A DNA stretch of 64,000 nt from an uncultured Thermoplasmata archaeon (GTDB taxonomy: Archaea; Thermoplasmatota; Thermoplasmata; Lutacidiplasmatales; UBA184). The stretch lies in assembly GCA_963749205.1 (NCBI GenBank), contig CAVVLW010000011.1, positions 4,367 through 68,366 of the forward strand. The letters are read 5' to 3'. Below the pieces are notes generated by a model. That model was not told where the DNA came from and did not search any database. It worked only from the letters and a program-made list of their open reading frames with translations. The translations under genes were made by a program, and so were the position numbers. This document shows positions 11,975 through 46,114 of the stretch, piece by piece; within the stretch, counting starts at the first letter, position 1; every line of letters begins with the position of its first letter.

Positions 11975-12047
11975 AGCCCCGTGGTGTAGTGGCCAAGCAT
12001 GCTGGCCTTTGGAGCCGGCGACAGCGGTTCGAATCCGCTCGGGGCTA
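11975..12047 (+). tRNA. tRNA-Gln (anticodon TTG), intron-less, CCA not encoded
   Basis: Manually folded: acceptor AGCCCCG/CGGGGCT; D-arm GTGT-AGTGGCCAA-GCAT; anticodon arm CTGGC-CTTTGGA-GCCGG (U33, anticodon UUG, R37); variable loop CGAC; T-arm AGCGG-TTCGAAT-CCGCT; discriminator A. Confidence 0.85.
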
Positions 12048-12283
12048 GTTCACACCACTCGCCTTCTGGCTAGGGCGTTCCGCGGGCGGCGCCTGAAGAA
12101 CCGACCGTCCCGGAAGGGGTTGCTTGAGTACGTCCCCGCAGTGAGCGAAGTTCACTCCACGAATCACTGGCTCCCGCCGCGACAAAGTTGCTGAGGCCGG
12201 CCCTCTTGGCTGCGAGAGATCTTGATGCAGGGGGATGGCTCCGCCGGATCAACAAAGGCCGAAGTCGGCAGTCGAAACGACGG

Positions 12284-12919
12284 CTACGGGTACTGCTCGC
12301 AGGTGATATCGAAGACGAACGTAGGAGTGTACACTCCGTTCTGTGAGGGCAGCGTGACGTTCAGCCAGAGGGACGCTGGGGGGTTGGAGTTGGCGTTCTC
12401 CCCCGAGAAGTTCAGTGGGAACGGGTGAGCGCTCCAGACGCCACTCTTGAGCTGTGCCTCCAACGATAGAATCGCAAAGGGGGAGAGCGCGACGATCCCG
12501 TTCACACTGCAGTTCACTGGGACGCCGGGGGGAAAGAGGTCTTCATAGATTGTCAGGCCGAGCCGCACCGCGCTTCCTGCGGGAGCCTGAATTGTCCAAA
12601 CAGAGGGCGATTCGCTGGTGGCATTGAACCAAGCTCCGACGTATTCGAAAACATTCGTCGCCGTCTTACCCGCCGGCACATTGGTGTAGTTGAACCATAG
12701 ATTTGCACCGTTAACGAGCACGTCCGTCGGTCCACTCGCCCGGGTCTCCAGGTAGAACGTGGCGAATACGACGCTCAGGACCACGACTACGACGGCGGCG
12801 ATGGCTGCCCAACGTCGGACTCGATGCGGTTTTTGAGTGATACCGGTTGGTCGCGGCCCACCGGGTTCTAGAGAGGATCCGGGGGGCGGTGTGCCGGCCG
12901 ATCCGACGAGCGCCGCCAT
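12284..12919 (-). CDS. membrane-anchored secreted protein with multiple N-glycosylation sequons (hypothetical surface protein)
   Basis: N-terminal TM/signal anchor (WAAIAAVVVVVLSVVFATFYL) followed by a beta-rich domain carrying NYT, NAT, NCS, NFS, NVT sequons. No recognisable family. Confidence 0.45.
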   Translation of the reverse strand: MAALVGSAGTPPPGSSLEPGGPRPTGITQKPHRVRRWAAIAAVVVVVLSVVFATFYLETRASGPTDVLVNGANLWFNYTNVPAGKTATNVFEYVGAWFNATSESPSVWTIQAPAGSAVRLGLTIYEDLFPPGVPVNCSVNGIVALSPFAILSLEAQLKSGVWSAHPFPLNFSGENANSNPPASLWLNVTLPSQNGVYTPTFVFDITCEQYP

Positions 12920-12964
12920 CCATTCGCCCCGCCGGGATTCGGCTCCGAGGTATTCAACCTATCC

Positions 12965-12979
12965 GTGTCAGGCTGCGGT
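12965..12979. repeat. left 15-bp target-site duplication GTGTCAGGCTGCGGT
   Basis: Identical 15-mer occurs at 14134..14148 immediately outside the right IS end. Confidence 0.7.
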
Positions 12980-14133
12980 TCTGGAGTACGGAAATTAGTT
13001 CCCTCTCCCGCCCAAGAAGAACCTGCCCTCCTGCCTTCCACTGGAAAGGGGGGTTCGAAGGGGGGACCGACCTTCGGTTCCTGGCAGCGTCTCCTTCCCC
13101 CGAGGTCCTTCGGTCGCGTGACCAAGCTCACCGACCGTCGCATCGAGTGGCTGATCCGCCAGGCGCAAGGAACCGTTCGGCCTCGCGAGACGGTCGGTCA
13201 GATGGCCGCCCGCTGGGGCGTCACGCCTCGCTGGCTGAGGAAGCTCCTTCAACGGTGGCGCCAGTCCGGGGTCGTGCCCCACCTCAACCCCCGACGGCGA
13301 CCTCCCGGGCCTCCGCTGACCGACGAGGAGAAGCAGGCGATAGAGGAGGAACACCGTCGGTCGCCTCGCGGCGCCACGAAGCTCTGGCGAGCTCTGGCGC
13401 GACGCGGAGTCCGCATCCCGCACGAGAAGGTCTACCGCTACGCCCGGAGCCAAGGCTGGGCGGTACCCAACCCGCGCAAGCAGCGACCCCGGGGCCGATG
13501 TCGATACGAGCGGGAGCACACGGGCTCTCTGGTGCACACCGACTTCCACCGAACCAGCCTGGACCATCCCCACGTCATCCTCTACGAGGACGACGCCAGT
13601 CGGAAGGTGCTGGCCGGGGGCGAGTTCCCCGAGCAGTCGACCGAGCATGCGATCGAGATGCTCGAGGAGGCGATCGCGGAGGCGGCGAGCTGGGGCCTCT
13701 CGATCCGCGAGGTGAACACCGACCGGGGGACGGAGTTCTTCGTCAGTCCGAAGGTCGACCGGCCGGACGCCAGCCCGGGGCAGTTCCAGCGATTCCTGGC
13801 GGAGCACGGGATCCGCCATGTCGTCAGTCGGCTGAAGAACCCACAAACCAACGGCAAGCTAGAGCGGTTGTGGTACCAGTACCGACCGCCATCGGTGGCG
13901 GTTCCCCACGCTGGGGGAGTTCATCGAGTGGTACAACGACCAGATCCACGACGCGCTGTGGCTGGAGATGTACGAGACCCCGCGGGAGGCGTTCCAGCGG
14001 AAGCTACCCCCCGAGGTCCTCCTGGGACTCCACCTACGTCAGGTCGCGGCGATCGCAGGAGAGGCATGACCGACGGAGATCCTCCCCCGAACCCCCACCG
14101 TTCAAGTACCGGAACTAATACCCGTACTCAACA
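12980..14133 (+). mobile_element. IS481-like insertion sequence (about 1154 bp) with imperfect terminal inverted repeats
   Basis: Left end TCTGGAGTACGGAAATTAGTTCC (12980-13002) against the reverse complement of the right end TGTTGAGTACGGGTATTAGTTCC (14111-14133): 19/23 matches, with a core 17-mer matching 15/17. Flanked by perfect 15-bp direct repeats. Encodes one rve-type DDE transposase. Confidence 0.75.
13118..14069 (+). CDS. DDE transposase/integrase (rve core), frame broken near 13880-13900
   Basis: N-terminal HTH (VTKLTDRRIEWLIRQAQG...), catalytic core ...HTDFHRT...NTDRGTEFF...NGKLERLW. The C-terminal ...FPTLGEFIEWYNDQIHDALWLEMYETPREAF is in a different frame (F P T L starts at 13902). 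GTG start assumed. Confidence 0.75.
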
Positions 14134-14148
14134 GTGTCAGGCTGCGGT
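14134..14148. repeat. right 15-bp target-site duplication GTGTCAGGCTGCGGT
   Basis: Identical to 12965..12979. Confidence 0.7.
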
Positions 14149-14308
14149 ACTGAGCCTTGAGCGGTTTTCTAGCGCCGGGGGTGTGCAAAGAGGCCGGTCT
14201 CCGAAGGGAGGGCGGAGTCCGGCTTTTCGCGGGTGGGCTAGGTCTTCTCCTTCCTGCGTCGCTCGGCCCGTGGCTGGGGCCCCATTTCCTTCGGACCGCA
14301 GCACGCGT

Positions 14309-14725
14309 TTAGGGATTCCGAGCCGGAAGAACCTGGAAACCAGCCTCCGAAAAATTGTGGTCGAAGGTGAAGGCGCGACCGATTTCGAGCTCTTGCATCA
14401 GGACAAAGCTCGTGCAATCGGTCAGGCTCCACCGCTTGTCCTCATGAGCGAGCATCAGCTCGACCGCATGGTCGAAGTCGCGCTCGGAGACCCGCAGCAT
14501 TTGCAGGTTTGACGAGCCGGTGAGAAGGCCTCGCAGACTTCGCACTGGACCGATTCCGAGCCGCATACGAAGGAGCGTGTAGGTCTCATCGAGAACATAA
14601 TCCGTGGTCAGGATTCTGCCGAACTCCCCCTCGGTCACGCGCCCGAAGAGCTTGACCGCATCCTCGTTGCGGCGCTCACGATTGTCTGCGAGCGCGTACC
14701 AAGCGCTCGAGTCGACAAGGATCAT
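14309..14725 (-). CDS. vapC: PIN-domain ribonuclease toxin VapC
   Basis: MILVDSSAWYALADNRERRNEDA... (PIN acidic residues D5, E...; ...DYVLDET...). Internal start chosen; ATGA overlap with the vapB stop. Confidence 0.75.
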   Translation of the reverse strand: MILVDSSAWYALADNRERRNEDAVKLFGRVTEGEFGRILTTDYVLDETYTLLRMRLGIGPVRSLRGLLTGSSNLQMLRVSERDFDHAVELMLAHEDKRWSLTDCTSFVLMQELEIGRAFTFDHNFSEAGFQVLPARNP

Positions 14726-14961
14726 TCTAGGGGACCATACAGGATTTCGTCGTGATGCTCGGCCACGTTCGTCCTCGGTCCCTTTCTCCGGACGAGAGGG
14801 AATGCGGTAAAAAGCGGATCTGACGGGTCCACGTTGTCCGGCAACAGCTGCGCCCGAAGGGCGGCCCGAATCCAATCCTGCATCGTCTTACCTTCACCGC
14901 GTGCCTTCCGGCGGAGGAGCTCGTACTCTGCTTCCGGAACTCGGGTTTGGATTAACTTCAT
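14722..14961 (-). CDS. vapB: ribbon-helix-helix-type antitoxin VapB
   Basis: 79 aa. MKLIQTRVPEAEYELLRRKARGEGKTMQDWIRAAL is an RHH/CopG-like N-terminus; located directly upstream of vapC and overlapping it. Confidence 0.65.
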   Translation of the reverse strand: MKLIQTRVPEAEYELLRRKARGEGKTMQDWIRAALRAQLLPDNVDPSDPLFTAFPLVRRKGPRTNVAEHHDEILYGPLE

Positions 14962-17506: not shown

Positions 17507-18899
17507 ATGACCGGCATTCGAAAGGAGACCGACAGCCTCGGCGAGGTCGACGTTCCCGCAGACAAGCTTTGGGGAGCGCAGACCCAGCGATCCCTTGAAT
17601 ACTTCAGCATCGGCCAAGACCTCATTCCGCGGGAGATGATCACCGCTTACGCGACGCTGAAGAAGGCCGCCGCGATCGCCAACCATGACGGCCATCGGCT
17701 GGCCGAGGGACCCTACCGGTTGATCGGTACAGGTCTGCGACGAGATCCTTGCCGGCCAGCATCACGACATGTTTCCGCTTCACGTTTGGATGACGGGGAG
17801 CGGCACCCAGTTCAACATGAACGTGAACGAGGTGATCTCCAACCGCTGCTGCCAACTTGCTGGGACGCCGCTCGGAAGCAAATTGCCGGTGCACCCGAAC
17901 GACCACGTTAACATGGCCCAATCGACCAATGACACCTTCCCGTCCGCCATGTACATCGCCGCGGCCATGAGCGTGAAGCAGAAGCTGGTCCCGGCGGTAA
18001 AGGCGCTCGAGGCGGCGATCGCTTCGAAGGCCGAAGCGTGGCGCGACATCGTGAAGATCGGGCGGACTCACCTGCAGGACGCCACGCCCCTGGCCCTCGG
18101 CCAAGAGTGGTCCGGTTATGCGGGAATGCTGGCGGAGGACCTGGAGCGGATCGAGGACGCATTGAAGGGCGTGTACCGACTCGCCTTGGGCGGGACCGCG
18201 GTCGGGACCGGCATCAATTCGGCGCCCGGTTTCGGCGAGGCGGCGGCGGCCGAGATCGCCCGGTCCACGGGTCTGCCCTTTGTAAGCGCACCCAACAAGT
18301 TCGCGGTGCAGGGCGCCCACGACGCGCTGGTGCAGCTTTCCGGTACGCTTCGTACGCTCGCCGGCTCGCTCTACAAGATCGCGAATGATATCCGACTTTT
18401 GTCCTGCGGTCCTCGAGCGGGGTTCGCCGAGCTGTCGATCCCGGAGAACGAGCCCGGGTCGTCCATCATGCCGGGCAAGGTGAACCCGACGCAGGCCGAG
18501 GCGCTGACGATGATCGCGGTCCAGGTGATGGCGAACGACGTCGCCGTCGGCTTCGGCGGCGCAGGAGGTTACCTCGAGATGAACGTCTACAAGCCCCTGA
18601 TGATCTACAACGTCACCCACTCGATCACGATCATGGCGGACGGGTGTACCAACTTCCGCAAGTTCTTGATCGAGGGGACGGAGCCGAATCGGAAAAAGAT
18701 CCAGGAGTACGTCGACCGCTCCCTCATGCTCGTGACCGCTCTCTCGCCGGTCATCGGCTACGACAAGGCGTCACAGATCGCGCACTATGCCTTGGAAAAC
18801 GACCTCACACTGAAGGCCGCCGCGCTGAAGCTGGGCTTCGTGACCGAAGAAATGTTCGACCGAGTGGTCGACCCGGCGAAGATGATCAAACCGCAGTAG
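17507..18899 (+). CDS. fumC: fumarate hydratase class II; frame broken near 17727-17731
   Basis: [33 protein letters not shown]... (ORF 17507..17911) then ...[35 protein letters not shown]...[13 protein letters not shown] (ORF 17769..18899). Class-II fumarase signature. Confidence 0.9.
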
Positions 18900-20556: not shown

Positions 20557-22648
20557 ATGAGCGACCGGGACCAGACATGCATCAACACGATTCGATTCCT
20601 CGCAGTGGATTCGGTTGAAAAGGCAAAATCGGGTCATCCCGGCCTTCCTCTTGGTGCCGCTCCGATGGCCTACGTCCTCTGGGACCGCTTCCTCCGCCAC
20701 AACCCGGCCGATCCCCACTGGCCGAATCGCGACCGATTCGTCCTCTCGGCCGGCCACGGGTCGGCCCTGCTCTACGCGCTGCTCCACCTCACGGGCTACG
20801 ACCTTCCCATCGAGGAACTCCAACGATTTCGGCAGTGGGGTAGCCGGACCCCGGGCCACCCCGAGTACGGCCGCACGCCCGGCGTCGAGGCAACGACCGG
20901 CCCGCTCGGACAGGGATTCGCGATGGGGGTCGGGATGGCGATCGCCGAGCAGCACCTGGCGGCGGCGTGGAATCGGGACGGGTATCCGCTCGTCGACCAC
21001 TGCACGTACGGGATCGTCTCCGACGGCGACCTCATGGAAGGCATCTCCTCCGAGGCCGCGTCGCTCGCCGGCGCACCTCGGGCTCGGGAAGTTGATCTAT
21101 CTTTACGACGATAACCACGTCTCGCTCGAAGGGCCGACCATCTGGGCCTTCACGGAGGACGTCGGGCGTCGATTCGAGGCCTACGGTTGGCAGGTGCTGC
21201 GGGTGGCCGGACGGCAACGACCTCGCGGCCATCGAGAAGCGCCCTCGGGAAGCGCAGAGCGGACACCGCACGACCCAGCCTCGATCTGCGTCCGTACCCA
21301 CCTCGGCTACGGCAGCCCCGTCCAGGACACCCGCGAGGCCCACGGCGAGCCCCTCGGGCCCGGCCAATCTGCGGGCGACGAAGGAGAAGCTGGGCTGGCC
21401 TCTCGAACCCACGTTCCTCGTGCCAGCGGAGGCCCGTGCTCACTTTCGTGAGGCGCTGGAACGCGGCGCTCGGTGGCAGAAGGAGTGGGAGACGCTCCGT
21501 GACCGCTTCGGTCTCAGCAACCGGCCGAGCGGGCGCGGACAGATCGAAGACCAGTACGCGGGAACGCTCCCGGCAGGCTGGGACTCGGACCTGCCCGCGC
21601 TTTCGTCCGAGCGACGGACCGACTGGCGACCCGCGACGCCTCCCAGAAGGTACTCACCGCACTCGGACCCAAGCTCCCCGCGCTCATCGGGGGCGCAGCG
21701 GACCTTTCCCCTTCTACGAAGACGCTGCTCCCCGGGTTCCCGGATTACTCCGCGACCGACGGGCTTGGACGTAATTTCCACTTCGGCGTCCGGGAGCACG
21801 CGATGGTCAGCGCGCTCAACGGCATGGCGCTCCACGGCGGGCTCCTCCCGTACGGGGGGACGTTCCTCGTCTTCTCGGACTACGCCCGGGGGGCGCTCCG
21901 GCTCGCTGCGCTGCAGCAAACGCACGCGATCTTCGTCTTCACCCACGACAGCATCGGCATGGGGGAGGACGGACCGACCCACCAACCCATCGAACAGCTC
22001 GTGAGTCTACGCGCGATCCCGGACTTCTGTCTCTATCCGGCCGGCCGACGCGAACGAGACCACCGCAGTTTGGCGGCTCGCCGTCCAGCGACCGGGTCCC
22101 ACGGCACTCGTCTTCACTCGTCAAAAAGTCTCCGTCCTCGACCCGGCTCGCTATCCGATCGCGGAGGGGGTCCCTCGGGGCGGATACGTTCTCTCGGAGG
22201 CGCCGGCGGGTCCGCCAGGCGGTCGTCCTCGTCGCGACCGGTTCGGAGGTCTCCCTCGCCCTCGATGCGCAGGCGAAGCTCGGCGACCTCGGTGTGGCGG
22301 CGCGGGTCGTGTCTCTGCCGTGCTGGCGCCTGTTCGACGAGCAATCGCCGGCGTACCGCGACTCGGTCCTCCCCCCCGGCACTCCCGAAGGTCTCCATCG
22401 AAGCGGGGACGACCCTCGGGTGGGCGCGGTACGTCGGTCCCGGCGGGGCATCGATCGGGATCGACCATTTCGGTGCCTCGGCTCCCGGGCCGGTGCTTCA
22501 GCGGGAGTTCGGCTTCACCATGGACCACGTCGCTCGAAGTGACGATGCGAGTGCTGGGGCGGCCGAAGCGGGGCGGGTCCGCCGTGACCAGTCTCTCCGA
22601 GCTTCTCTCCCGCGGCCAATCGCCGTGGCTGGATTACATCCGACGTAG
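20557..22648 (+). CDS. tkt: transketolase; several frame changes; 3' end uncertain (about 22560-22648)
   Basis: [42 protein letters not shown]...[20 protein letters not shown]... then pieces in ORFs 20615..21451, 21420..22004, 21803..22648 (...[12 protein letters not shown]..., ...[34 protein letters not shown]..., ...[10 protein letters not shown]). Confidence 0.85.
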
Positions 22649-25352
22649 CTTCTCGACGAGCGGCGAGCTCGAGCGGATGGTCGAAGAAGGACGGGATCAC
22701 CGGGGTAACGATCAATCCGACGATCTTCGAGAAGGCGATCGCAGGAAGCCATGATTATGACGACGCGTTGAAAGATCTCCTCGACCCACGAACCCCACCT
22801 CGGTCCGGCCGAGCTCTATGAGCGGCTGGCGGTGGAGGATGTCCGTCCGCGCGGCGGACGTCCTGCGGCCGGTGTTCGACCGCACCGAGGGCAAGGACGG
22901 TTTCGTCAGCCTCGAGGTCGCTCCCGGCCTCGCCCACGATACTGCGGGCACTGTCGCCGAGGCGCGCCGGCTCTGGGCTGAGGTCGATCGGCCCAACCTG
23001 CTGATCAAGGTCCCGGGAACGCCCGAAGGGGTCCCAGCGATCGAGGAGTTGCTCTCCGAAGGGATCAACGTCAATGTGACCCTTCTGTTCTCCCTCTCTC
23101 AGTACGAGGCCGTCGCCCAGGCGTACCTGCGTGGGGTCGCGCGGGCCCGGGACCCGGCGCGGGTCGCGTCGGTCGCGTCCGTCTTCGTCAGCCGGATCGA
23201 CACCGCCGTGGACCGCGCCCTCGACGCCGCGAACGTGGCGACGGCTACCGCCCTCAAGGGAACGGTCGCCCTCGCCAACTGTCGCGTGATCTATGCGCGA
23301 TTCCAGGAGATCTTTCAAGGGCCGCTCGTTCGCCACTCCGAGTGCCCGGGGAGCGCGGCCTCAACGTGTGCTCTGGGCCAGCACGAGCACGAAGGACCCC
23401 CACTACCGCGACACGCTCTACGTCGAGGAGCTCATCGGACCCGAGACCGTCGACACGATCCCTCCCGCGACTCTTGCCGCGTTCGAGGACCACGGAGTCG
23501 TCCGTGGGGACACGGTGACCCAAGGGATCGCGCAGTCGCTCGAACAGCTCGTCCATGTGGCCGCGGTCGGGGTCAATCTCGCCCAGATCACCGAGGACCT
23601 GCAGACCGAGGGGGTCGGGCTGTTCGCGGACTCGTACGCCCTTCTGCTCCGAACCCTCGCGAGTAAGAAGGAAGCGACTTCTCGCGGGAAACCTCGACCC
23701 CGAATCCTGGAACCTCGGTAGCAGATAGCGGCCGGGTCGAGGCGGTTGAGGCAAGCTGGCAGGCGGCGCGGACCGCCGAGCGATTCTGGAAACTGGATGC
23801 GACCCTCTGGCCCGCTGCCCCCCGGAGCGACGTCGTCTCTCGCATGGGGTGGCTTCAGCTCCCCGAACTGATGCACGACCAGCTTCCCCGGCTCGAGCAC
23901 TTTCGCGGAAGAGGTCCGTTCCGAGGGATTCCGCCACGCCGTGGTTCTGGGGATGGGTGGCTCGAGCCTCGCTCCCGACGTCCTACGCGGGATATTTGGC
24001 AGCCGTCCGGGGTATCCCGAGCTGCTCGTTCTCGATAGCACTCATCCCGGACGCGATCGCCGCGGTCCATCGGAGTATCGACCCGGCGCACACCCTCTTC
24101 CTGGTCTCGAGCAAGTCGGGCACGACCACCGAGCCGCTCGCGTTCTACCGGGTACTTCTCGGAGACAGTCCGCGCGAGCGGCATCGCGCCGGGACGTTGT
24201 TTCGTCGGCGGTCACGGACCCAGGTACTCCGCTCGAGAAGCTCGCTCACGACGAAGGGTTTCGCGCAGTCTTCCTCGCCGTCCCGACGGTCGGGCGGAGG
24301 TACTCTGCGCTCACGATGTTCGGCCTCGTCCCCGCGGCAGCTCATCGGGTTCGACGTGCGTCTGCTCCTCGACCGCGCGTGGACGATGGCCGAAGGCGTG
24401 CGCGCCCTCGGTGCCGGTCGATGAAAATCCTGGGCTATCGCTCGGCGCGGTCCTCGGCGAACTCGCTACCCACGGCAGAGACAAGCTCACGTTCTACGCG
24501 GGGAAGAGCTTCGCCCCGTTCCCGGTCTGGGTCGAGCAATTGGTCGCCGAGAGCACTGGCAAGATCGGCAAGGGGATCGTGCCGGTCGTCGACGAGCCGC
24601 GGGTCGCTCTCGAGCACTACGGGGCGGACCGACTGTTCGTGGAGATCCAGGAAACCGGCCACCTCGACGGTCCGCTCGCGACGCACACGAGTCGACTCGA
24701 GGCTGCGGGTTTTCCGGTGGTGCGCATCCGGGCGCCGGACCGGCTCGCCGTCGGCGAGGAATTCTTCCGCTGGGAGATGGCCGTGGCGAGTGCCGGGATC
24801 GTCCTCGGGATCAACCCGTACGACCAGCCCGATGTCGAGTTCGCCAAGGAGCTCGCTCGCAAGGCGATGGCGCAGCCGTCCGGCGCCACGGGAGCGGCCG
24901 ATGTGGTGACGGTTCGAATCGATAGCGGGGCAGACTTCCACGCGGCCGTCCGGGAATGGCTCGATTCGGCCCGCCCCGGGGATTACGTCGGGATCCAGGC
25001 CTATCTGGCGCCCACCACCGAGACCTCGAGCGCCCTCGATCGGGTGCGCCGCCGACTCCTCGAGCTTCTGAACGTCGCGACGACGCTGGGCTACGGTCCC
25101 CGCTTTCTCCATTCCACCGGGCAGCTGCACAAGGGCGGTCCGAACACCGGGCTCTTCCTCCAGCTGATCGACGCACCCCAGCACGACCTCTCGGTGCCAG
25201 GAGCCGGGTACACGTTCGGGGAGCTCATACGGGCCCAATCGCTCGGGGACTACCAGGCGCTCCGTCAGAAGCAGCGCCGGATCCTTAGAGTGGACCTCGG
25301 GTCCGACGTCCGCGGCGGCCTTCATCATCTCATCGAGGTGCTGCGTGCCTGA
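22545..25352 (+). CDS. tal-pgi: probable bifunctional transaldolase / glucose-6-phosphate isomerase (Tal-PGI fusion type); several frame changes, including an in-frame TAG near 23719 that may be an artefact
   Basis: Tal part: ...[33 protein letters not shown]..., ...[66 protein letters not shown]... PGI (SIS) part: ...[11 protein letters not shown]...GWLQLPELM...[22 protein letters not shown]...[22 protein letters not shown]... Total about 936 aa, the length of known Tal-PGI fusions. Confidence 0.75.
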
Positions 25353-25963
25353 GTGTCTCGCTCCTCCTGTGGGACGTCGGAGGAGTGCTGCTCTCGAACG
25401 GCTGGGACCGGACCGCCCGCGCAGCCGCGGCCGCTCGACTTCAACCTCGACGTCGGCGGAACTGGAACGACGACACCAACTGGTCGAGACGGCGTTCGAG
25501 ACCGGACGGCTCGATTGGGAACGGGTATCTCGCAGCGACCGTCTTCTATGCGCCCCGGTCGTTCACCTCGGACGCGTTCCGGAAGTTCATGCGGGAGCAG
25601 TCCCGAGGCAATACCCCGCTCTCGCGACTGCCCGAGCGCTCCGGAGCGAGGGAAGGTACGTGATGGCGGCGCTGAACAATGAATCCCGAGAGCTGAACGA
25701 GTACCGCATCCGGACCTTCGGACTCACCGAGGTGTTCCACGCGTTCTTCAGCTCGTGTTATACCGGCTACCGGAAGCCCGACCCCGCCGCCTACCGGTAC
25801 GCGCTCGACATCGCTGCAACGTACGCCCCCTGAGACCCTCTTCCTCGACGACCGGCCCGAGAACATCTCGGCCGCCGCCCGGCTCGGTCTTCGCACGCTC
25901 GAAGTGCGGGACCCCGAGCGACTTCGGGAAGAGCTGGCGCTCGCGGGCGTCACGTCGGGGTAG
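25353..25963 (+). CDS. HAD-superfamily phosphatase (DxGGVL subtype); several frame changes
   Basis: LLWDVGGVLLSNGWD (HAD motif I variant), ...YRKPDPAAYRYALDIA... (motif III region), ...LFLDDRPENI... (motif IV). Stop TAG 25961-25963. Confidence 0.55.
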
Positions 25964-25973
25964 GAGGAGAACG

Positions 25974-26883
25974 ATGGAACTGGGAATGGTCGGGCTCGGA
26001 AAAATGGGCGCGAACATGACGGTACGGTTGGTCGAGGGAGGACACCACGTGGTGGGCTACGCTCGGACGAAGGCCGTGGTCGACGCGGTCGTAGCGCAGG
26101 GGGCCTCCGGCGCGGACTCGCTCGCGAATCTCGTGCAGCAGCTCGAGCCCCCACGGGTCGTCTGGCTGATGATCCCGTCGGGCGACCCCGTCGACCAGAC
26201 GCTCGACCAGCTCCATCCGTTGCTCGCGCCCGGCGACCTCGTCGTGGACGGGGGAACTCCTACTACCGGGACACGCTCCGTCGATCCGCCCGGGTCACCG
26301 GTTGGGGCATTCCGGTACGTGGATGTCGGGTACGAGCGGAGGGATCTGGGGGCTCAAGGAAGGGTATTCGATGATGGTCGGCGGCGACGACGCCGATGTC
26401 GAGCGCGTTCGGCCGATCCTCGAGACGCTCGCGCCCGGCCCCAAGCTCGGGTGGGGCCACATGGGTCCCGTCGGCTCCGGTCATTTCGTCAAGATGGTCC
26501 ACAACGGGATCGAGTACGGAATGATGCAGGCGTACGCCGAAGGCTTTGCCGTGCTCCAGGGGAAGACGGAGTTCGCGTTGGACCTGCATCAGGTCGCGGA
26601 GGTCTGGAGGTACGGCAGCGTCATCCGGTCGTGGCTGCTCGAGCTGACCGAGGACGCGCTCGCCGAGAATCCGACGCTCGCCGGCATCGAACCGTGGGTC
26701 GCGGACTCCGGGGAGGGTCGATGGACGGTGACGGAGGCGATGGACCTCAACATCCCCGCCCCGGTGATCACGCTCGCCCTGCAAGCGCGGCTGCGATCGA
26801 GGGAGGCCGACCCGTTCACCGAGCGGCTCCTCGCAATGATGCGCAACAAGTTCGGCGGCCACGACGTGAAGCGGGAGAGCTAG
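25974..26883 (+). CDS. gnd: 6-phosphogluconate dehydrogenase, decarboxylating (short Gnd/YqeC-type); frame change near 26270-26300
   Basis: MELGMVGLGKMGANMTVRLVEGGHHVVGYAR... (NAD(P)-binding) then ...GIWGLKEGYSMMVGGDDADVERVRPILETLAP...HFVKMVHNGIEYGMMQAYAEGF... GGAGGAG box 25964-25970 precedes the ATG. Confidence 0.85.
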
Positions 26884-26885
26884 GC

Positions 26886-28344
26886 ATGGGGAGCCCCGGT
26901 CCCGAGCGGCACTTGTTCGTGGTGTTCGGCGCGACCGGGGACCTGATGCAGCGCAAGCTCCTTCCCGTGCTGTACCGACTGAACGCGAGGGGAAAGCTCC
27001 CGACCGGAACGGTCGTCCTCGGGGTCGCGCGCCGGCCGATGGACGACTCGGCCTTCCGTGGCATGGCCCTCGCGCTCGCTCACTGCGGAAAAGGTCGCAG
27101 AGCCCGGGCCGCTCCGCTCCTTCTGCGATGCGACTCTCTTCTACCAAGCGGTCGCGGACGAAACTGCGCCGAGCTTCGCGGGCCTGCGGCGACGGGTCGA
27201 ACAACTGGAGCAGGAGCACGGTCTGGTGGGAAATCGAATCTTTTACCTCGCGCTGCCCCTCGAAGCGTTCGCCCCCACCCTGGCCGGGCTGGGCGAAGCG
27301 GGGCTGAACGCCGGCCCCGGCTGGACCCGCGTCGTGATCGAGAAGCCGTTCGGGCGGGACCTCGCATCTGCCGAAGCACTGAACGGGCTCGTCCACCGGT
27401 ACTTCGAGGAGAAGCAGGTATTCCGGATCGACCACTATCTCGGCAAGGAGACCGTGCAGAATCTCCTGGTCTTCCGGTTTGCCAATATGTTCATCGAGTC
27501 GCTCTGGACGCGCGAACGGATCGACCACGTGACGATCACCGTCGCGGAGTCGCTCGGCGTGGAAGGGCGCGCCCGCTACTACGAAACGTCGGGGGCACTG
27601 CGTGACATGATCCAGAACCACGTGACGCAGGTCCTGACGCTCATCGCGATGGAGCCTCCCGCGACCCGGGACGAGGACTCGATCCGGAACGAGAAGGTCA
27701 AGGTGCTCCAAAGCATCGTCCGCTTCGGACCCGGTGACGTGGTTCGGGGCCAGTACACCTCGGGGAACATCGACGGAGCGCCGGTCTCGGGTTATCGGGA
27801 GGAACCCGGAGTCGCTTCCGAATCGGACACCGAGACGTTCGTTGCGCTCCGGTCTGAAAATCGCGAACTGGCGGTGGCAGGACGTCCCGTTCTTCCTGCG
27901 AACGGGCAAGCGACTCCCCGCGAAGTCAAGCTGGGTCGTGCTGACCTTTAAGGCCCCCCCGTGACGTTCTTTCAGACGGCCCAGGAGTACAACGCGAACC
28001 CGGACCGCATCTCGATCCTCATCCAGCCCGACGAGGGGTTCGAGCTCGCGTTCGAGGTGAAGGTGCCCGGCCGGGAGATGCGCCTGCAGACCCATCGGAT
28101 GAAGTTCAACTATGCCGAGGTGTTCGGCGAGCTTCCGGACGGGTACGAGACGCTCCTGATCGACGTGATGCTGGGGGACCCCACCCTCTTCGTCCGCGCC
28201 GACGAGGTAGAGGAGTCGTGGCGCCTCTACGAACCGCTGCTCCGGTCGCCTCCCCCGCTGAAGTTCTATCCTGCGGGTTCGTGGGGACCCGAGGAGGCTC
28301 AGACGCTCGTCCAGGGGTGGGGGCACCGTTGGTATTACGGTTAG
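26886..28344 (+). CDS. zwf: glucose-6-phosphate 1-dehydrogenase (canonical Zwf); frame changes near 27060 and 27900-27960
   Basis: [22 protein letters not shown] (N-terminal dinucleotide motif), EKPFGRDL and the strictly conserved RIDHYLGKE at 27424-27450; C-terminal domain in ORF 27961..28344. Confidence 0.9.
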
Positions 28345-29110
28345 ACCGTAGGGCGCTCGTCTTCCCGGATCTCGATACCGCCAGCGCGGCCCTCGCCCGT
28401 CATCTCGTCACCACCGCGATCGCCTCCGTGCGTGAGCGAGGCGGCTTCTCGCTCGTAATCTCGGGCGGACGCACCCCGCTCGGACTCTACCGGCGCCTCG
28501 GAGGAGCCGCCGGTCGCCGTTTTCCGTGGAAGTCGACCGACCTGTTCTTCGCGGACGAACGCTGTGTTCCATCGCGGAATCCCGAGAGCAATTTCGGCGT
28601 GGCGTGGGACACGTTCCTTTCCCGGGTGACGATCCCGCGCCACCGGATCCACCGACTGCGCGGGGAGCTGAAGCCTCCCTCGGAAGCCGCGGCGCGGTAC
28701 GCGCGCGCACTCGGGCATCTCGCGCTCCCGGGAAACTCGCTTCCTCCACGTTTCGACGTGGTCTTGCTGGGGATCGGTCCGGACGGTCACACCGCGTCCG
28801 TGTTCCCCGGGCAGTCCCGCGGCGCACGAGGAGCGGCGCGCCGTGGTCGCGGTGCCGCATTCGGGGTTGCGTCCGTTCGTCCCCCGGTTGACGTTGACGC
28901 CCCCGGCCCTCTCCTCGTCCCGAGAGGTCTGCTTCCTCGTCGCGGGAGCGGACAAGGCGGACGCGGTAGCCGGCGTCTTCGAACCGGTCCTGCGGGGGAC
29001 CTCGGCCTTCCGGCGAGCCTGTGCGGCCCCCGGGGCCCGCATTCTGGTTTCTGGATTCTGCGGCGGCGGACGGGCTTCCGTCCCCGAGGGCGGGTCGCCG
29101 CTCCAACTAG
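28329..29110 (+). CDS. pgl: 6-phosphogluconolactonase (Pgl/DevB); frame changes near 28830 and 28990
   Basis: ...FSLVISGGRTPLGLYRRL...DLFFADERCVP...FDVVLLGIGPDGHTASVFPG..., then ...VCFLVAGADKADAVAGVFEP..., and in the +1 frame ...LPASLVRPPGPAFWFLDSAAADGL*. Probable TTG start overlapping the zwf stop. Confidence 0.8.
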
Positions 29111-29121
29111 CTCCGGGCCCG

Positions 29122-29819
29122 TCACACGGGTCGGGCCGGAGTGACGTCGGCCCAGAGCCGAACCCCGCCGACCATCGCGTTCCGATTATCGCCGCGCTCC
29201 GCCCGGGGCGGGAGCTCTCGGAGCTTGCGAACGTTCCCCCTCCCAGCACCACGTAGTCGGGTTCGAGCGCGTCCGAGAGGGTCTTCGTGACGGCGAAGAC
29301 CTCCTTCTGCCACTTCCTCCGACCGAGGCGCTCCAGACCATCCTCGCCAACAAAATCCTCGTACGTCTTTCCTTTCTTGTACGGGAGATGGGCGAGTTCC
29401 ATGGGCTCGAGCTTCCCCTCGACGATCATCGCGCTTCCTCGGCCGGTCCCGAGTCCGAGGAAGAGCATCCGCCCGCCGTGGTAGCTCCCGAGGGCCTGCA
29501 TGGCCGCGTCGTTCACGACCCGGGTCGGGCGACGGAACGCGTTCTCGAACCCGAACCCCACCCACCCTTTCCCGAGGTTCGGGGGTTCGGCCACGGGCCG
29601 GCCGTGGACGACAAGCCCGGGGTAGCCGACCGACACCAGGTCGTACCGTTCTCCTCTCAATCGTCGAGCCAGCCTCTTCACCATCTCACCGGGTTCAAAG
29701 TTCGGGCCGGAAGGGATCTTGATTTCTCTCCCCCCGTCCGAGAAACCCGCCTTCACGTGGCTCCCACCGACGTCGAGGACGAGAATTCGCTTCGGTCGTG
29801 GCGGACGTTTCGACCCCAT
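29122..29819 (-). CDS. glk: ROK-family glucokinase (polyphosphate/ATP glucokinase-like); frame change near 29170-29200
   Basis: RILVLDVGGSHVKAGF... (ROK N-terminal ATPase motif), ...RVVNDAAMQALGSYHGGRMLFLGLGTGRGSAMIV..., C-terminal ...GGGNVRKLRELPP...RGDNRNAMVGGVRLW in another frame. Only the first 230 codons of ORF 28341..29819 are real. Confidence 0.7.
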
Positions 29820-29926: not shown

Positions 29927-30583
29927 CTAAGAGAGAACTCGGAAGGCGATATTGAAGTTGCCCAGCTTCATCGCCACTCGCACCCAGAGAGGTACGAGGG
30001 CCTCGAGCCACCGGGCCCCTTCGATGCCTCCAAGGTCCACCGACCCGGACCATCCGAACTCCCGAAGGATGCGGTCGACTTCGGCCTTGGCCCCGTCGTC
30101 GTTTCCCGCGATGATCATGGTGGGGCTGGCCCCGTGGATGGCCGGATGGGTCATCACATTCGCCGGAACGATGTTGAAGCACTTCACGACGCGCGACCCT
30201 GGCAGCTTTCGCTGGTGACGCTCGCCGAGGGAGTCGGTCATGCCTACGAAAAGACCGGGGGGCGGTCCGTGGGAGAAGTCGAGGGCGTTCGTCGCGTCGA
30301 TGAGGACCTTCCCGTCAAAGTGTTCGGGCCCGGCGAGCGCGATGACCTCTTCACTTGCGGTACCCAAGCAGGCGAGGACGACGACCTCCCCATGCTGCGC
30401 GGCCTCGGCGAACGTCCCCGTCGAGACCTTTCCCGGAGTAGCCTTCTTCCACGCTACGAGCTCCGGCTTGTCCGGTGTCTTCGACCCGATCTGGACATCG
30501 TGCCCGTGCTCGGCGAAGCCCGTCCCGAGCGTTTGACCGACCACGCCACTACCGAGGATTCCGACGCGCATGACCGCCGGCAC
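29927..30583 (-). CDS. NADP oxidoreductase, coenzyme-F420-dependent family (NpdG/ProC-like dinucleotide-binding protein)
   Basis: MRVGILGSGVVGQTLGTGFAEHGHDVQIGSKTPDKPE... (Rossmann fold), about 215 aa, PF03807-like. Confidence 0.6.
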   Translation of the reverse strand: MPAVMRVGILGSGVVGQTLGTGFAEHGHDVQIGSKTPDKPELVAWKKATPGKVSTGTFAEAAQHGEVVVLACLGTASEEVIALAGPEHFDGKVLIDATNALDFSHGPPPGLFVGMTDSLGERHQRKLPGSRVVKCFNIVPANVMTHPAIHGASPTMIIAGNDDGAKAEVDRILREFGWSGSVDLGGIEGARWLEALVPLWVRVAMKLGNFNIAFRVLS

Positions 30584-36995: not shown

Positions 36996-37220
36996 ATGGG
37001 GATCGATGACGACGTGTCGGCCAACGCGGTCAAAGTCTACAAGACGATGAAGGACCTCGGGAACGTCTCCGACGAAAAGATGGGAACCGCGGAACGGATC
37101 ACTCAGTCGGCGAAGCTGCCGAAGAACATGGTGCTGAACGCCCTCCAGGAGCTTCAGGCGAAAGCCTACGTCCGGCGCAAGGTCCGCGAGAAGGCCGCGG
37201 GTTACTATCTGATCCGCTAG
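36996..37220 (+). CDS. small winged-helix DNA-binding protein
   Basis: 74 aa. ...LPKNMVLNALQELQAKAYVRRKVREKAAGYYLIR resembles the recognition helix and wing of small archaeal wHTH regulators. 4-nt convergent overlap with the tfb stop. Confidence 0.4.
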   Translation: MGIDDDVSANAVKVYKTMKDLGNVSDEKMGTAERITQSAKLPKNMVLNALQELQAKAYVRRKVREKAAGYYLIR

Positions 37221-38221
37221 CTCGGCGAGTCGGGCCCGAGGGCCGTGGGCAGGCCGCGTCGGCCCCATACCTTCTCGAGGAGACGGCTGGTGGACCGCAG
37301 GGTCACTTCGGTCACGGCGCTGACCCGAGCGACCTGGGCTCGGGAGCGCCGCTCGCCGTGCTTCTCCGCCGCGAGGTAGATCAGTGCGGCGACCAAGCCG
37401 TGGGGAGAGAGGCCCGAGAGCTCGGGGTCGTCCCTGGCCTCGTCGAGCATCGCCTCGACGGTCGAGCGAACCCACGGGGAGAGCGCGAGTTCCTGCGCAT
37501 ACCGCCCAAGGAACGCCTTGGTCCCCACACTGGGCACGCTTTGCCCGGTCCCACGCTGAATGACCTTGAACGTACGACCGACCTCGGATCGTTTCGCGTT
37601 GACCGCCTCCGCCACCTCGCCGAGGGTGCGCGGAACCGAGTACCGACGGCAGGCGACGTAGAGGGCGGCGCCGACGCTGGCGGGAAGGCTGCGCCCGCGG
37701 AAAAGGCCGCGGTGTTTTGCTTCCCGGAAGACGTGCTCCGCTTCGGCCTGGATCACCGGCGGAAGCCCGAGGCGTTCCACGGCGACCACGATCTCGTTGC
37801 GCGCGGGGGAGCGGTCGAGAGGCCCGTCCGCGACCCGCGAGGTCTGCCGCTGCATGACGCGCTTGAGGTGCTGGAATTCGTACCGACGGTGCCAGTCGAG
37901 TCGCTTCCCCTGACCGTCGCGCGCGGTGGACAGGGTCGACCCGAGCGCTCGTTTGGACCCGCCGGGGGGAACGAACGGCCCGATCCCGCGGCCGCTGCCC
38001 TCGGAACCGGAGGCACCGACGGGTGGGGGGGGGACTGCCAGGATCTCGGAAGTTTCGAACACGAGGCCGCACTCCGCACAATGCGTCTCGGCCCGGATCG
38101 GGTCGACGATCCGGTGCCCGCTCCCGCACATGGGACATGTCGGGGCCTGCGCTCCAGCTCCGGTCGAAGCCGGCGCGGGACGCATGACACGGTCTGGCAC
38201 GGTACTACCGAGGGCCATCAC
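37217..38221 (-). CDS. tfb: transcription initiation factor IIB (TFB)
   Basis: N-terminal Zn ribbon CPMCGSG...HCAECGLV, B-reader/linker, two cyclin-fold repeats (...LGLPPVIQAEAEHVFREA..., ...AALIYLAAEKHGERRSRAQVA...). Confidence 0.9.
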   Translation of the reverse strand: MMALGSTVPDRVMRPAPASTGAGAQAPTCPMCGSGHRIVDPIRAETHCAECGLVFETSEILAVPPPPVGASGSEGSGRGIGPFVPPGGSKRALGSTLSTARDGQGKRLDWHRRYEFQHLKRVMQRQTSRVADGPLDRSPARNEIVVAVERLGLPPVIQAEAEHVFREAKHRGLFRGRSLPASVGAALYVACRRYSVPRTLGEVAEAVNAKRSEVGRTFKVIQRGTGQSVPSVGTKAFLGRYAQELALSPWVRSTVEAMLDEARDDPELSGLSPHGLVAALIYLAAEKHGERRSRAQVARVSAVTEVTLRSTSRLLEKVWGRRGLPTALGPDSPS

Positions 38222-38995: not shown

Positions 38996-40780
38996 TCACT
39001 GGCCCCAGAACGGGTGAGCGGACCGGTGGAGCCGTGCGACCTCCTCAAGGATCTCCGCCTCTCGGGGCGTGAGCCCTTGGCCCCTCAATGCGCGTGCTGC
39101 GGATTCCGGGATCGACACGAGCAGCTGGTCCCCTTCCTTCACGTTCCGTCCGACGACGGCGCCCTCGATGGACGCCGCGAGCTCGGTCAGTTCCTCGGCC
39201 GACGCGACCGATTCCCCATCCTTCTGGAGGCCGCGGAGCACTCCCACCTCGGTGCCGTCCGTCTTCATGAGCCGAACCCCCGGTCGAAGGATGCCGCCGA
39301 GGACCTTCACCCCGACGATTGCCGGCTTCGACGCACGGAAGACGAACCCGGGGAGTATCTCGAGCTTCGCGGGATGGACGAGCTCCAGCCGGCGCTGCGC
39401 CTGCATCGCCCGCTGCCGCTCGTCGCGCCAGGTCGTGTACTCTTCGATGACGCGGTACATCACCTCGCCTCGGAAGATCCGCACCGGCCCTGCTTCGCCT
39501 TCCGGCTGGGCGTCCGGAAGCGATGGGCACATTGAACGCCAGCACGGCGCGATGGGTCGGGTCCTTCACGGTCGCCATGCGGATGACGGTCGGCCGTCCG
39601 ACGGGACCCACCGTCGCCTCGTGGACCGGGATCTTGCCCTCCCGGCACTCGAAGGCGAGCGCTTCCAGCCCGCCGAGCGCATCGGCACAGATCGCAACGC
39701 CACTCTCGGCGAGTTCCGCCACGGGCTGGGCCTCCTGGGCGAGCTCGGCCCGAACGCGCGCGGCCTCCTCGGCCGAGTGCACGACCTTGAGCAACCCCCC
39801 CGGCATCGCGTCCTCGATCCCGGGCGCTGCGAGGTAGACTCCCGCAGCGGCCAGGACCTCGTCGAACGACCGGAGCTTCACTTGCTTCGATGACGTGCCG
39901 GGTTTCAACGGGATGGGTCGATAGATCCCTCGGATCCGGGTCGAGAACGGTTCGGTCCGCCCCGTCGCGACGATCTCGTCGCCGACCTTCAAGCGGCCGC
40001 TGTACACGATGACGTTCCCGACCGGCCCGATCCCTTTCTGGTCGCTCCGTTCGAGGATCGTCGCCTCGCCGCCCTCGGTGACGAGTGCGAGCTCCTCCTG
40101 GAGGAATCGCTGGGCGAGTCCGACCAGCAGCGCGATGAGCTCCGGCACTCCGACCCCGCTCTTCGCCGAGACCGGAACGATCCCGACGTTCCGGGTGAAA
40201 TCACTCACCCGGTCGTACCGGTCGGCCGAGAATCCGAGCCGGACGACCTCTTCCGCGACCGAGTAAAGGTGCTGGTCGAGTGTCCGGGCGAACTCGGGCC
40301 CGCCCGCGCGCGATCTGGTCGGCGAGGGGAACCGGGGTCGGGGTCTTCCGCCATCCCGCCAGGAGGTCGATCTTCGTGAGGGCGATCGCGAACGGGGTCT
40401 TCTCGTGACGGAGGATCTGGATCGATTCCCGAGTCTGGGGCATCAGCCCCTCCCGGACATCCACGACCAGGATCGCGAGGTCCGCGAGCGCACCGCCCCG
40501 GCGGCGGAGCGTCTCGAACGACCGGTGGCCGGGCGTGTCGACGAACAGTAGGCCCGGGACCGCGAGCTGGTCCGTGGTCAGAATCCCTTCGCACAGTCGG
40601 CGTACCGTCGGTCCGGGGACCTCGATCGCGCCGATGTGTTGCGTGATGCCGCCGGCTTCCTTCGAAGCTCGGTACGCTCCCCGCGATGCGGTCCAGCAGG
40701 GTCGTCTTCCCGTGGTCGACGTGACCCAGCAGGGAGACGATCGGCTCTCGGAGGTCGACCACGCCCGTACGACGGGCCAT
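38996..40780 (-). CDS. infB: translation initiation factor aIF5B (IF-2 homologue); at least three frame changes
   Basis: G1 IVSLLGHVDHGKTTLLDRI (ORF 40205..40780); ...VDTPGH..., G4 ...LTKIDLL (ORF 40201..40464); domain II/III pieces in 39045..40208; C-terminal beta-barrel ...IVGVKVLGGILRPGVRLMKTDGTEVGVLRGLQKDGESV... (ORF 38996..39532). Confidence 0.85.
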
Positions 40781-41850: not shown

Positions 41851-42987
41851 CTATTGAAGGTCCGGCGATCGCGCTTGCTCCCGAATCCGCTCAGACGGAG
41901 GTCCGGGAAACTCGTCCAGCGAGACCTGCCGCTGGCGCCGTTCGGAGAGACGTTCGGTCTTTACCGACAGCGTCCGGACCGACCGACCCCGGGCCGACCG
42001 TTCGGCTTCCCAGAGCTCCCGGGCCAGACGGACCGCCGCCGCCTCGAGCGGCCCCGGGCCCTCCCGAGCGGCCCCGAGCGCGCGGCTCCGCTGAGACCTC
42101 GCGAAATCGCTCCACCGGTACGCGACCCCGACCGAGGCGTATCGAAGCTCTTCCTTCTCTAGGCTCCGCGCCAGCTCGGTCGCGAGCTCTCGCACCGCCG
42201 GTTCGATCTCTTCCCACCGGTCCACGTCGCGCGGAAAGGTGCGGTCAGTGGAGCGCGACCTCGGACCGGACTCCTCGTCGACGGGGTCTTTCCCCTCGCC
42301 CCGAGCCAACGCGACCCATTCACGGGCGAACGAACCGATCGTGGCGGGCGACGATCGAGGGCCGCTGGGCGGCGAGCTCTCCGATCGTCGCCACCCCCGC
42401 CGCACGGAACAGTTCCTCCGTCTTCGGCCCGACGCCCGGGATCGCCCGGACGGGCAGCGGCGCGAGGAACGCCGCCTCGGTGCCGGGAGCCACGACGAGG
42501 ACGCCCCCGGGCTTCGCCCGGTCGGTCGCGATCTTCGCCGACGGTACGGGTCGTCGCCACCCCGATCGACGCCGGCAGTCGAAGCTCGGCACGCAGTGCG
42601 CGCCTGGACTCGTTCCGCCACGTCGCGCGCTTCCTCGGGAGATTCGAGGTCGAACCCCAGCGCAGCCTCGTCGATGGAGAGAGGGACCAGGTCCTGCGAA
42701 AAACGGGCGAGGAGCGCACGCACCTCGGCGGCGACCCGACCGTACTTCGCGTGGTCCGGCGGGATCCAGACCGCCTCCGGGCAGAGCCGCGCCGCCTGGG
42801 CCGCCGGCTGCGCGCTATGGATGCCGAATTTCCGTGCCTCATAGCTCGCCGACAGGACGACGCCTCGGGTCGGGCCCCCGGTCTGGGGCGGTCCGACGAT
42901 CACCGGTTTGCCCACGAGGTCAGGTCGTTCTCGCAGCTCGCACGACACGTAGTACGCGTCCAGGTCGACGTACACCGTCCACCGCAT
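41851..42987 (-). CDS. dinB: Y-family DNA polymerase IV (DinB/Dbh); frame changes near 42300-42600
   Basis: MRWTVYVDLDAYYVSCELRERPDLVGKPVIVG...RGVVLSASYEARKFGIHSAQP...CPEAVWIPPD...PLSIDEAAL. Little-finger/thumb region ...LPVRAIPGVGPKTEELFRAAGVATIGELA is in ORF 42320..42592. Confidence 0.8.
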   Translation of the reverse strand: MRWTVYVDLDAYYVSCELRERPDLVGKPVIVGPPQTGGPTRGVVLSASYEARKFGIHSAQPAAQAARLCPEAVWIPPDHAKYGRVAAEVRALLARFSQDLVPLSIDEAALGFDLESPEEARDVAERVQARTACRASTAGVDRGGDDPYRRRRSRPTGRSPGASSSWLPAPRRRSSRRCPSGRSRASGRRRRNCSVRRGWRRSESSPPSGPRSSPATIGSFAREWVALARGEGKDPVDEESGPRSRSTDRTFPRDVDRWEEIEPAVRELATELARSLEKEELRYASVGVAYRWSDFARSQRSRALGAAREGPGPLEAAAVRLARELWEAERSARGRSVRTLSVKTERLSERRQRQVSLDEFPGPPSERIREQARSPDLQ

Positions 42988-42989
42988 GC

Positions 42990-46054: not shown

Positions 46055-46114
46055 GGTCGCGCACTCAGGCCATGATTAATAGAAGGGGGGATGGTCCGCC
46101 CGGGGGAAGCGCCG

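Follow-up and report, generated by a model that had tools for sequence, protein, structure and literature searches.

A conserved oxidative pentose phosphate gene cluster of bacterial ultimate origin in the archaeal UBA184 lineage, with frameshifts that are probably assembly errors

The window analysed here, a 64 kb stretch (~67% GC) of contig CAVVLW010000011.1, carries a cluster of seven genes built around a canonical, bacterial-type oxidative pentose phosphate pathway (PPP): tkt, a fused tal-pgi, a HAD-family phosphatase gene, gnd, zwf and pgl on the forward strand, and a ROK-family sugar kinase gene on the reverse strand. We assign a probability of about 0.85 to the reading that this is a conserved, operon-like cluster of the UBA184 lineage, acquired from bacteria no later than the base of the order and inherited vertically since, and that the approximately 41 frameshifts by which it is interrupted are single-base insertion and deletion (indel) errors. 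Gene identity, synteny, clade membership, the lack of a compositional anomaly and the artefactual character of the indels emerge directly from the comparisons reported below. We attribute the window to a soil archaeon of high GC content within the Thermoplasmata, of the Lutacidiplasmatales / GTDB UBA184 lineage, judging by synteny, by GC content and by the identity of its proteins to those of metagenome-assembled genomes (MAGs) labelled Thermoplasmata.

The six forward-strand genes were recognised by homology between positions 20557 and 29121 (Table 1), and at this level their co-directional arrangement, as described in the first-pass annotation, is confirmed. Pfam places Transketolase_N, Transket_pyr, Transketolase_C, TAL_FSA, PGI, NAD_binding_2 (of 6-phosphogluconate dehydrogenase) and G6PD_N on this strand, each match covering only part of its profile, with the pieces spread over different frames; one open reading frame (ORF) of 616 amino acids (aa) even holds a piece of gnd together with a piece of zwf. 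To assign identities, the frame-corrected proteins were compared with the curated cut-offs of NCBIfam. Transketolase reaches 824 bits over its full length against TIGR00232 (cut-off 682.25), and the Tal-PGI fusion scores 1153 bits against NF007080 (cut-off 712), spanning profile positions 4-945 of 949. The phosphatase scores 41 bits against TIGR01509 (cut-off 29). Gnd matches the short-type models at full length (NF007161, 445 bits, cut-off 271; TIGR00872, 373 bits, cut-off 297), its scores against the long-form models TIGR00873 and NF006765 lying under their cut-offs. Zwf yields 564 bits against TIGR00871 (cut-off 400.6; profile positions 2-483 of 486) and Pgl 193 bits against TIGR01198 (cut-off 124.45; positions 1-232 of 234); the Pgl orthologue of the relative L006 contains ISGGKTP, FADERCVP and LLGIGPDGHTASLFPG. 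The two Zwf motifs singled out earlier, FGATGDL (26925-26945) and RIDHYLGKE (27424-27450), both exist, although they are located in different frames, and the corrected protein carries the GxxGDL and RIDHYLGKE signatures as well as VVIEKPFG, an instance of the EKPxG motif. Canonical bacterial-type Zwf, Pgl, Gnd, Tkt and Tal-PGI are thus encoded in a genuinely archaeal genome, as had been proposed. The absence of opcA also holds, since zwf ends at 28341-28344 and pgl starts at ~28329, leaving no space for another gene, and the same is true in the relatives.

The reverse-strand kinase is less well defined. It had been called a glucokinase divergent from the cluster; the similarity holds at the level of the family, but the protein stays under the Pfam ROK cut-off (19.7 against 22.9 bits) and reaches no glucokinase or ROK equivalog cut-off, its best NCBIfam match being to NF045942 (polyphosphate-glucose phosphotransferase; 54 bits, cut-off 250). 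Its context would suggest a glucokinase. Its orientation relative to pgl is convergent (tail-to-tail) rather than divergent, and a -1 frameshift at 29239, in a run of five C, lets its ORF continue antisense through pgl to 28341. The position of this gene is kept in the relatives.

The cluster had been described as complete, which does not apply to the sequence as it stands, where none of the seven genes is uninterrupted. Between 20.4 and 24.4 kb, ORF lists and GC3 frame analysis reveal no gene-length ORF with a consistent coding signature, and only fragments follow up to 29.8 kb; within tal-pgi, the C-terminal 313 aa (24411-25352) alone form an intact ORF. We mapped the frameshifts by aligning L006 proteins to the window with a purpose-written frameshift-tolerant protein-to-DNA aligner. 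The neighbouring genes for an ABC ATPase, an MFS transporter and TFB have no frameshift and that for an ABC-2 permease has one. After correction, the cluster genes contain no in-frame stop in ~2,900 codons, and the proteins are 63-84% identical to those of L006 (78.5% for tkt, without stops). A nucleotide multiple alignment resolves the indels private to the window into 35 insertions of 1 nt, one insertion of 2 nt and six deletions of 1 nt, with 31 insertion events falling between 21076 and 25815, so that the density of disruptions in 21.07-25.82 kb is ~16 times that of the flanks. All four bases were inserted (A/C/G/T 10/10/7/8; chi-square against genome composition ~6 with 3 d.f. by hand calculation, not significant), mostly without extending a homopolymer, and the deletions fall in C or G runs. 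Homopolymer slippage was rejected as the cause of the insertions: in a count from the printed contexts about one third of the inserted bases duplicate a neighbour, which is near random expectation, and only the deletions lie in homopolymers. Programmed or recoded frameshifting was likewise rejected, the ~40 sites having no common motif, an arbitrary inserted base and a distribution confined to patches, and being absent from the same-species contig described below.

The same kind of disruption is found outside the cluster. An extra G near 17722 ('ATC-G-GTA') splits fumarase into two frames, an extra T near 45880 ('GTC-T-GTC') does the same to TruD, and aIF5B (38996-40780) lies in at least four pieces in different frames, corresponding to GTP_EFTU positions 5-33, GTP_EFTU positions 101-134, domain 2 with IF-2, and domain 4. 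These observations indicate assembly noise rather than decay. A reference-free Viterbi frame caller proved too crude for frameshift counts outside the syntenic block. When relatives were treated alike, five had no frameshifts in tkt, tal-pgi, HAD, gnd and zwf, and four further relatives were also examined. Those with names pointing to short-read (Illumina) assembly have no internal frameshifts; sporadic ones occur in L011, whose contigs are named 'contig_<number>', as is typical of long-read assemblers. The window itself derives from an error-prone, probably long-read assembly of a metagenome.

A second rendering of the same locus was recovered from the ENA contig ERZ25039509:contig_96347 (hereafter L116), which a protein search with the ABC ATPase, an intact neighbour of the cluster, retrieved through a 99%-identical match; a metagenome scan with the PGI part gave no same-species contig, the best match being at 74%. 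Aligned with positions 20633-41729 of the window, L116 is 98.95% identical, with 146 mismatches and 75 indel events. Fifty of the latter are extra window bases at mapped frameshift positions, including three in aIF5B (39521, 40302 and 40671); as these bases are absent from L116, the aIF5B region is a second, small insertion-noise patch. In the other 25 it is L116 that has additional bases, and several of them restore homopolymer runs shortened in the window. L116 has frameshifts of its own at other sites, 10 in the seven cluster genes and two in the MFS gene. As many as 103 mismatches fall in 5 kb of the noisy patch (~2%), against 0-7 per kb elsewhere, the contig being otherwise ~99.9% identical; polarised by the relatives, 67 favour the window allele and 44 the L116 allele, which is ambiguous. 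We regard the two sequences as noisy renderings of one population in which the genes are intact, with the possible exception of zwf at 27954, and strain heterogeneity with a locally poor consensus would be a reasonable cause of the noisy patch.

Conservation of the cluster among relatives carries the second part of the argument. Relatives were collected with the longest intact Zwf fragment as query against a genome set limited to one per species; the best matches were ~18 MAGs named 'Thermoplasmata archaeon' (55-84% identity), followed by Armatimonadota and Gemmatimonadota (56-64%) and by cyanobacteria (~50%). From ~20.5 kb the window is collinear with L001 and L003-L006 at ~75% nucleotide identity, and in L001, L005 and L006 the collinearity extends into the TFB region or slightly past it, to 37.9-38.9 kb. 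The gene order of the cluster (tkt, tal-pgi, HAD, gnd, zwf, pgl, and the ROK gene on the opposite strand) recurs with intact ORFs in L001-L014 and L019 (~15 Thermoplasmata MAGs). The collinear relatives have a tkt of ~673 aa, a tal-pgi of 918-972 aa, a HAD gene of 204 aa, a gnd of ~305 aa, a zwf of ~490 aa and a clear pgl. Tal-PGI is a single polypeptide elsewhere too, as an 897-aa call with TAL_FSA and PGI in L116 and as the ORFs of 918-972 aa in L001, L005 and L006. The cluster is present in L019, the isolate AcS11-62 (JAKIVR...), which is placed in the Lutacidiplasmataceae (GTDB o__UBA184) with a GC content of 67.1% by Sheridan et al. (2022, PMC9287336).

A neighbour-joining tree was built from 79 Zwf sequences, chosen by similarity to Zwf, and the corrected window protein, without support values. 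In it the window is sister to L001, inside a 16-sequence Thermoplasmata clade that lies nested among Zwf proteins of bacteria. The nesting of this clade, together with the gene order shared by bacterial neighbours, points to a bacterial ultimate origin, and the single archaeal Zwf clade together with a flank-like composition points to an ancient transfer followed by vertical inheritance. The cluster borders show no step in GC, and the tetranucleotide distance of the cluster (0.0136) lies within the range of other window chunks (0.009-0.024), so that the compositional anomaly that might set the cluster off from its flanks was found neither in GC nor in tetranucleotide usage. An old bacterial-to-archaeal transfer, possibly of a block, with vertical inheritance afterwards, fits these data. 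The lateral acquisition suggested by the first-pass annotation therefore stands as regards the ultimate bacterial origin, but not as a recent event or one unusual for this organism: the Zwf belongs to a vertically inherited archaeal clade spanning at least 16 Thermoplasmata species with conserved synteny, an outcome that the annotation itself had named as contradicting its reading.

Two side observations concern the history of the cluster. In the more basal Thermoplasmata L010, L014, L018 and L020, the gene after tkt matches the PGI half only (residues ~370-917), whereas the crown group (L001-L009, L011-L013, L019 and the window) has the full Tal-PGI fusion; the fusion or replacement may be later than the acquisition of the cluster. 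The Zwf of L018 (DASRSV010000020.1, labelled Thermoplasmata) groups with Armatimonadota, at a locus with tkt-pgi-gnd-zwf-pgl, which could reflect another transfer independent of the first, a deeply branching lineage or an error in binning the contig.

The frameshifts might instead be real, the strain having lost the function of the entire oxidative PPP cluster to a recent series of small indels. In favour of this, seven of seven genes are disrupted in the sequence as given, the disruptions are concentrated in one patch, and that patch shows ~2% substitutions relative to the sibling contig. Pseudogene decay in prokaryotes, however, is biased towards deletions, and here nearly all changes are 1-nt insertions of arbitrary bases, of the type also seen in aIF5B, fumarase and TruD; there are no nonsense codons, no indels above 2 nt and no excess divergence in amino acids or at conserved sites. 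The corrected identities from tkt to zwf are 72-90% between the window and its relatives and 62-85% among the relatives. Where the other five genomes do not vary, the private-substitution rate of the window in the patch is 0.045, against 0.043-0.078 in the relatives; the window has 31 private indels in the patch and each relative has 0. These values give no sign of relaxed selection. As the 99%-identical L116 does not have these insertions, we rejected classical decay, and genuine pseudogenisation is in our estimate very unlikely. A narrower alternative accepts most indels as errors and takes only the -1 in the C7 run of zwf as real, leaving Zwf truncated after ~360 residues or needing transcriptional or translational slippage. 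Both assemblies split off a 127-aa G6PD_C ORF at this site, which has the only frameshift in an identical state in the window and L116; the zwf frameshifts at 27075 and 27853 are absent from L116 or of opposite sign there. Yet a C7 run is a classic place for systematic homopolymer under-calling in long reads, so that two assemblies of the same technology would share the error, the frame downstream of 27954 is perfectly conserved without stops, and all Illumina-assembled relatives are in frame here. We attribute the failure of zwf to form one uninterrupted ORF (three frameshifts) to sequence error and consider a real -1 unlikely. Its fuller consequences, a truncated, inactive Zwf with the rest of the operon kept, or programmed slippage, seem to us more unlikely again. 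A separate and more probable reading is that the UBA184 ancestor received a pgi-HAD-gnd-zwf(-pgl) block as a whole from a soil bacterium resembling Armatimonadota or Gemmatimonadota, the Tal fusion of the crown group coming later.

A different explanation places the discontinuity in the DNA itself, either as a recent lateral acquisition or as a chimeric contig in which a bacterial fragment was joined to archaeal DNA. In its favour, genes of these families are typical of bacteria, the Zwf sequences closest outside the archaea (Armatimonadota and Gemmatimonadota, at the 56-64% given above) stand in a similar gene order, synteny with the relatives begins, and upstream breaks off, at ~20495, and an insertion sequence (IS)/integrase element lies at 12.9-14.5 kb. 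Against this, the same archaeal neighbours (ABC transporter, MFS, TFB) are linked to the cluster in L001, L005, L006 and L116, the composition is identical to that of the flanks, and Zwf, in its one archaeal clade, is 77-86% identical to archaeal orthologues. Nor is the contig a chimera, because MAGs obtained independently show the cluster together with this same archaeal TFB. These data effectively refute a recent transfer or chimera, to which we give next to no weight. Several points nevertheless tell against an old acquisition with errors superimposed. The error explanation is drawn from comparison between sequences, not from reads or coverage, and the contig compared most closely, L116, is itself error-prone (10 frameshifts in cluster genes) and may share its technology or project with the window, so that it is no clean reference. 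The ~2% substitutions in the patch, with both alleles supported by relatives, imply that some real strain divergence is mixed in; insertion-dominated noise outside homopolymers is unlike the textbook nanopore error profile; and the -1 at 27954, common to both assemblies, could be real. Finally, a neighbour-joining tree without support, sampled by similarity to Zwf, does not resolve the donor lineage.

That a Thermoplasmata lineage has acquired the canonical oxidative PPP is already known. According to Sheridan et al. (2022, Nat Commun 13:4110, PMC9287336), the Lutacidiplasmatales are aerobic Thermoplasmatota of acid soils with ~69% GC, and the Supplementary Notes place the gain of zwf and gnd at their last common ancestor. 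The pathway table of that paper lists hxlB, hps-phi, rpe, rpiA, prsA, tkt and tal without zwf, pgl or gnd, and reconstructs rpe and rpiA for the ancestor of the order. Our window agrees with that study in lineage, genes, high GC (~67-69%) and the inferred gain in the ancestor; the study mentions zwf and gnd only, and the operon, the Tal-PGI fusion and the parallels in bacterial gene order are not described in its accessible text. The Angelarchaeales are reported to be without oxidative PPP enzymes (Diamond et al. 2022).

Among bacteria, the closest counterparts are the loci L015-L017, L022, L027 and L030 of Armatimonadota, Gemmatimonadota and Phycisphaerae, which have the same order, with identities of 52-56% for Zwf, 58-63% for Gnd and 38-43% for Pgl. 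Armatimonadota L015 has pgi-HAD-gnd-zwf, with PGI and HAD in the same positions as in the window, so that the HAD slot between pgi and gnd is kept both there and in the Thermoplasmata loci. The arrangement in Gemmatimonadota and Phycisphaerae is gnd-zwf-pgl. In these six loci PGI matches are confined to the PGI half of Tal-PGI, and neither tkt nor ROK gave a match. Actinobacteria and cyanobacteria have an operon of the layout tkt-tal-zwf-opcA-pgl, to which the cluster had been likened. The window shares with it co-directional tkt, tal, zwf and pgl and the canonical Zwf motifs, but the likeness does not extend to the layout, as the window lacks opcA, has a tal-pgi fusion and includes gnd and HAD within the cluster; cyanobacterial Zwf, moreover, is ~50% identical and falls in another part of the tree. 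Haloarchaea run their oxidative PPP with Azf, a non-homologous glucose-6-phosphate dehydrogenase, and GndA. The two systems are alike in being archaeal routes from glucose-6-phosphate to ribulose-5-phosphate with a short-type 6-phosphogluconate dehydrogenase, and they differ in that the window has a canonical Zwf (TIGR00871) and a canonical Pgl. Azf is listed as NAD+-dependent (PMC11976288).

The established roles of these families suggest how the pathway may operate, and the activities and cofactor use given here are predicted from them. The ROK-family kinase would make glucose-6-phosphate, which Zwf, Pgl and Gnd would convert to ribulose-5-phosphate and CO2 with the formation of two NAD(P)H. 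Tkt and Tal-PGI, with rpe and rpiA encoded elsewhere, could then recycle pentoses to fructose-6-phosphate and glucose-6-phosphate, giving a complete and potentially cyclic bacterial-type PPP closed through the PGI half. From tkt through pgl, the start codon of one gene adjoins the stop codon of the last or precedes it by a few bases, and for this reason the six genes are probably co-transcribed. One aerobic order of soil archaea would thus use the canonical NADPH-generating oxidative PPP of bacteria and not the ribulose monophosphate (RuMP) route alone, and the cluster would count among several reported gains from bacteria made as the order shifted to an aerobic heterotrophic lifestyle.

For biology, the cluster adds little beyond published work; the additions to the published picture are modest and consist of the tight operon packing, the HAD gene shared with Armatimonadota, the basal PGI half as against the Tal-PGI of the crown group, and the adjacent gene for an F420-dependent NADP oxidoreductase. 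The insertion-noise patches carry a more general caution. Read by homology, such a patch looks complete, and gene callers would report pseudogenes, so that either reading could yield false discoveries in the form of pseudogenised pathways, gene fusions or recoding.

Table 1. Positions in the window of the cluster genes, of two sequence features within the cluster and of marker genes in the flanks
Feature	Position	Strand	Description
tkt	20557..22581	+	transketolase, ~673 aa corrected; 11 frameshifts, 10 of them +1 insertions
tal-pgi	22584..25349	+	bifunctional transaldolase / glucose-6-phosphate isomerase, ~918 aa; 12 +1 frameshifts
HAD-IA family phosphatase	25345..25960	+	204 aa; 6 frameshifts
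gnd	25959..26880	+	6-phosphogluconate dehydrogenase, short type, ~300 aa; 3 frameshifts
zwf	26874..28344	+	canonical glucose-6-phosphate dehydrogenase, ~485 aa; frameshifts at 27075, 27853 and 27954
pgl	28329..29121	+	6-phosphogluconolactonase, ~255 aa; ~2-3 frameshifts (3 in the frameshift-tolerant alignment)
ROK-family sugar kinase	29110..29819	-	~236 aa; 3 frameshifts; convergent with pgl
Dense insertion-noise patch	21073..25816	.	~31 window-private insertions, 1 per ~155 nt; poorly resolved over 4.7 kb
C7 homopolymer in zwf	27948..27954	+	-1; sole frameshift in the same state in the window and L116
Prefoldin	5372-5800	+	
Fumarase	17507-18899	+	
TFB	37217-38221	-	
aIF5B	~39.0-40.78 kb	-	
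TruD	44740-46089	-	

The surroundings of the cluster are archaeal, as had been stated: TFB, prefoldin and aIF5B were located in the flanks, which also contain KaiC-like ATPases, a beta-CASP nuclease and an IF-2B-family protein. The intron-containing tRNA reported with them has a less certain status. ARAGORN calls a tRNA-Gly(UCC) of 91 nt at 52589-52679 (reverse strand) that lacks an obvious T-loop, but the Rfam tRNA model at gathering score gives no match.

Directly upstream of the ROK gene and on the same strand lies an intact 218-aa gene for an F420-dependent NADP oxidoreductase (F420_oxidored, 29927-30583, reverse strand), which could connect the NADPH of the PPP to the F420 pool. An ORF of similar size occupies this position in L001 and L005, and F420_oxidored is called there in L116; L003 and L006 have no counterpart at that position.

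At 41851-43770 (reverse strand), one ORF of 639 aa encodes both a KaiC/RadA-like ATPase domain, at residues 11-222, and a DinB-type polymerase (IMS and IMS_C), at residues 268-618. Given the indel noise of the window, it may represent two genes joined by an error rather than a true fusion; L116 stops short of it.

Further upstream lie a tRNA-Gln (11975-12047) and, after it, genes for an rve-family integrase/transposase (515 aa, 12965-14512) and for a PIN-domain protein (14309-14875, reverse strand). The fuzzy coding signal at 12-16 kb was considered as a second error patch, an explanation that was rejected in view of the IS/integrase element and PIN toxin and their different composition. Over 11975-14875 the GC content is lower (~0.64) and the coding signature is atypical, and this stretch is probably an integrated mobile element.

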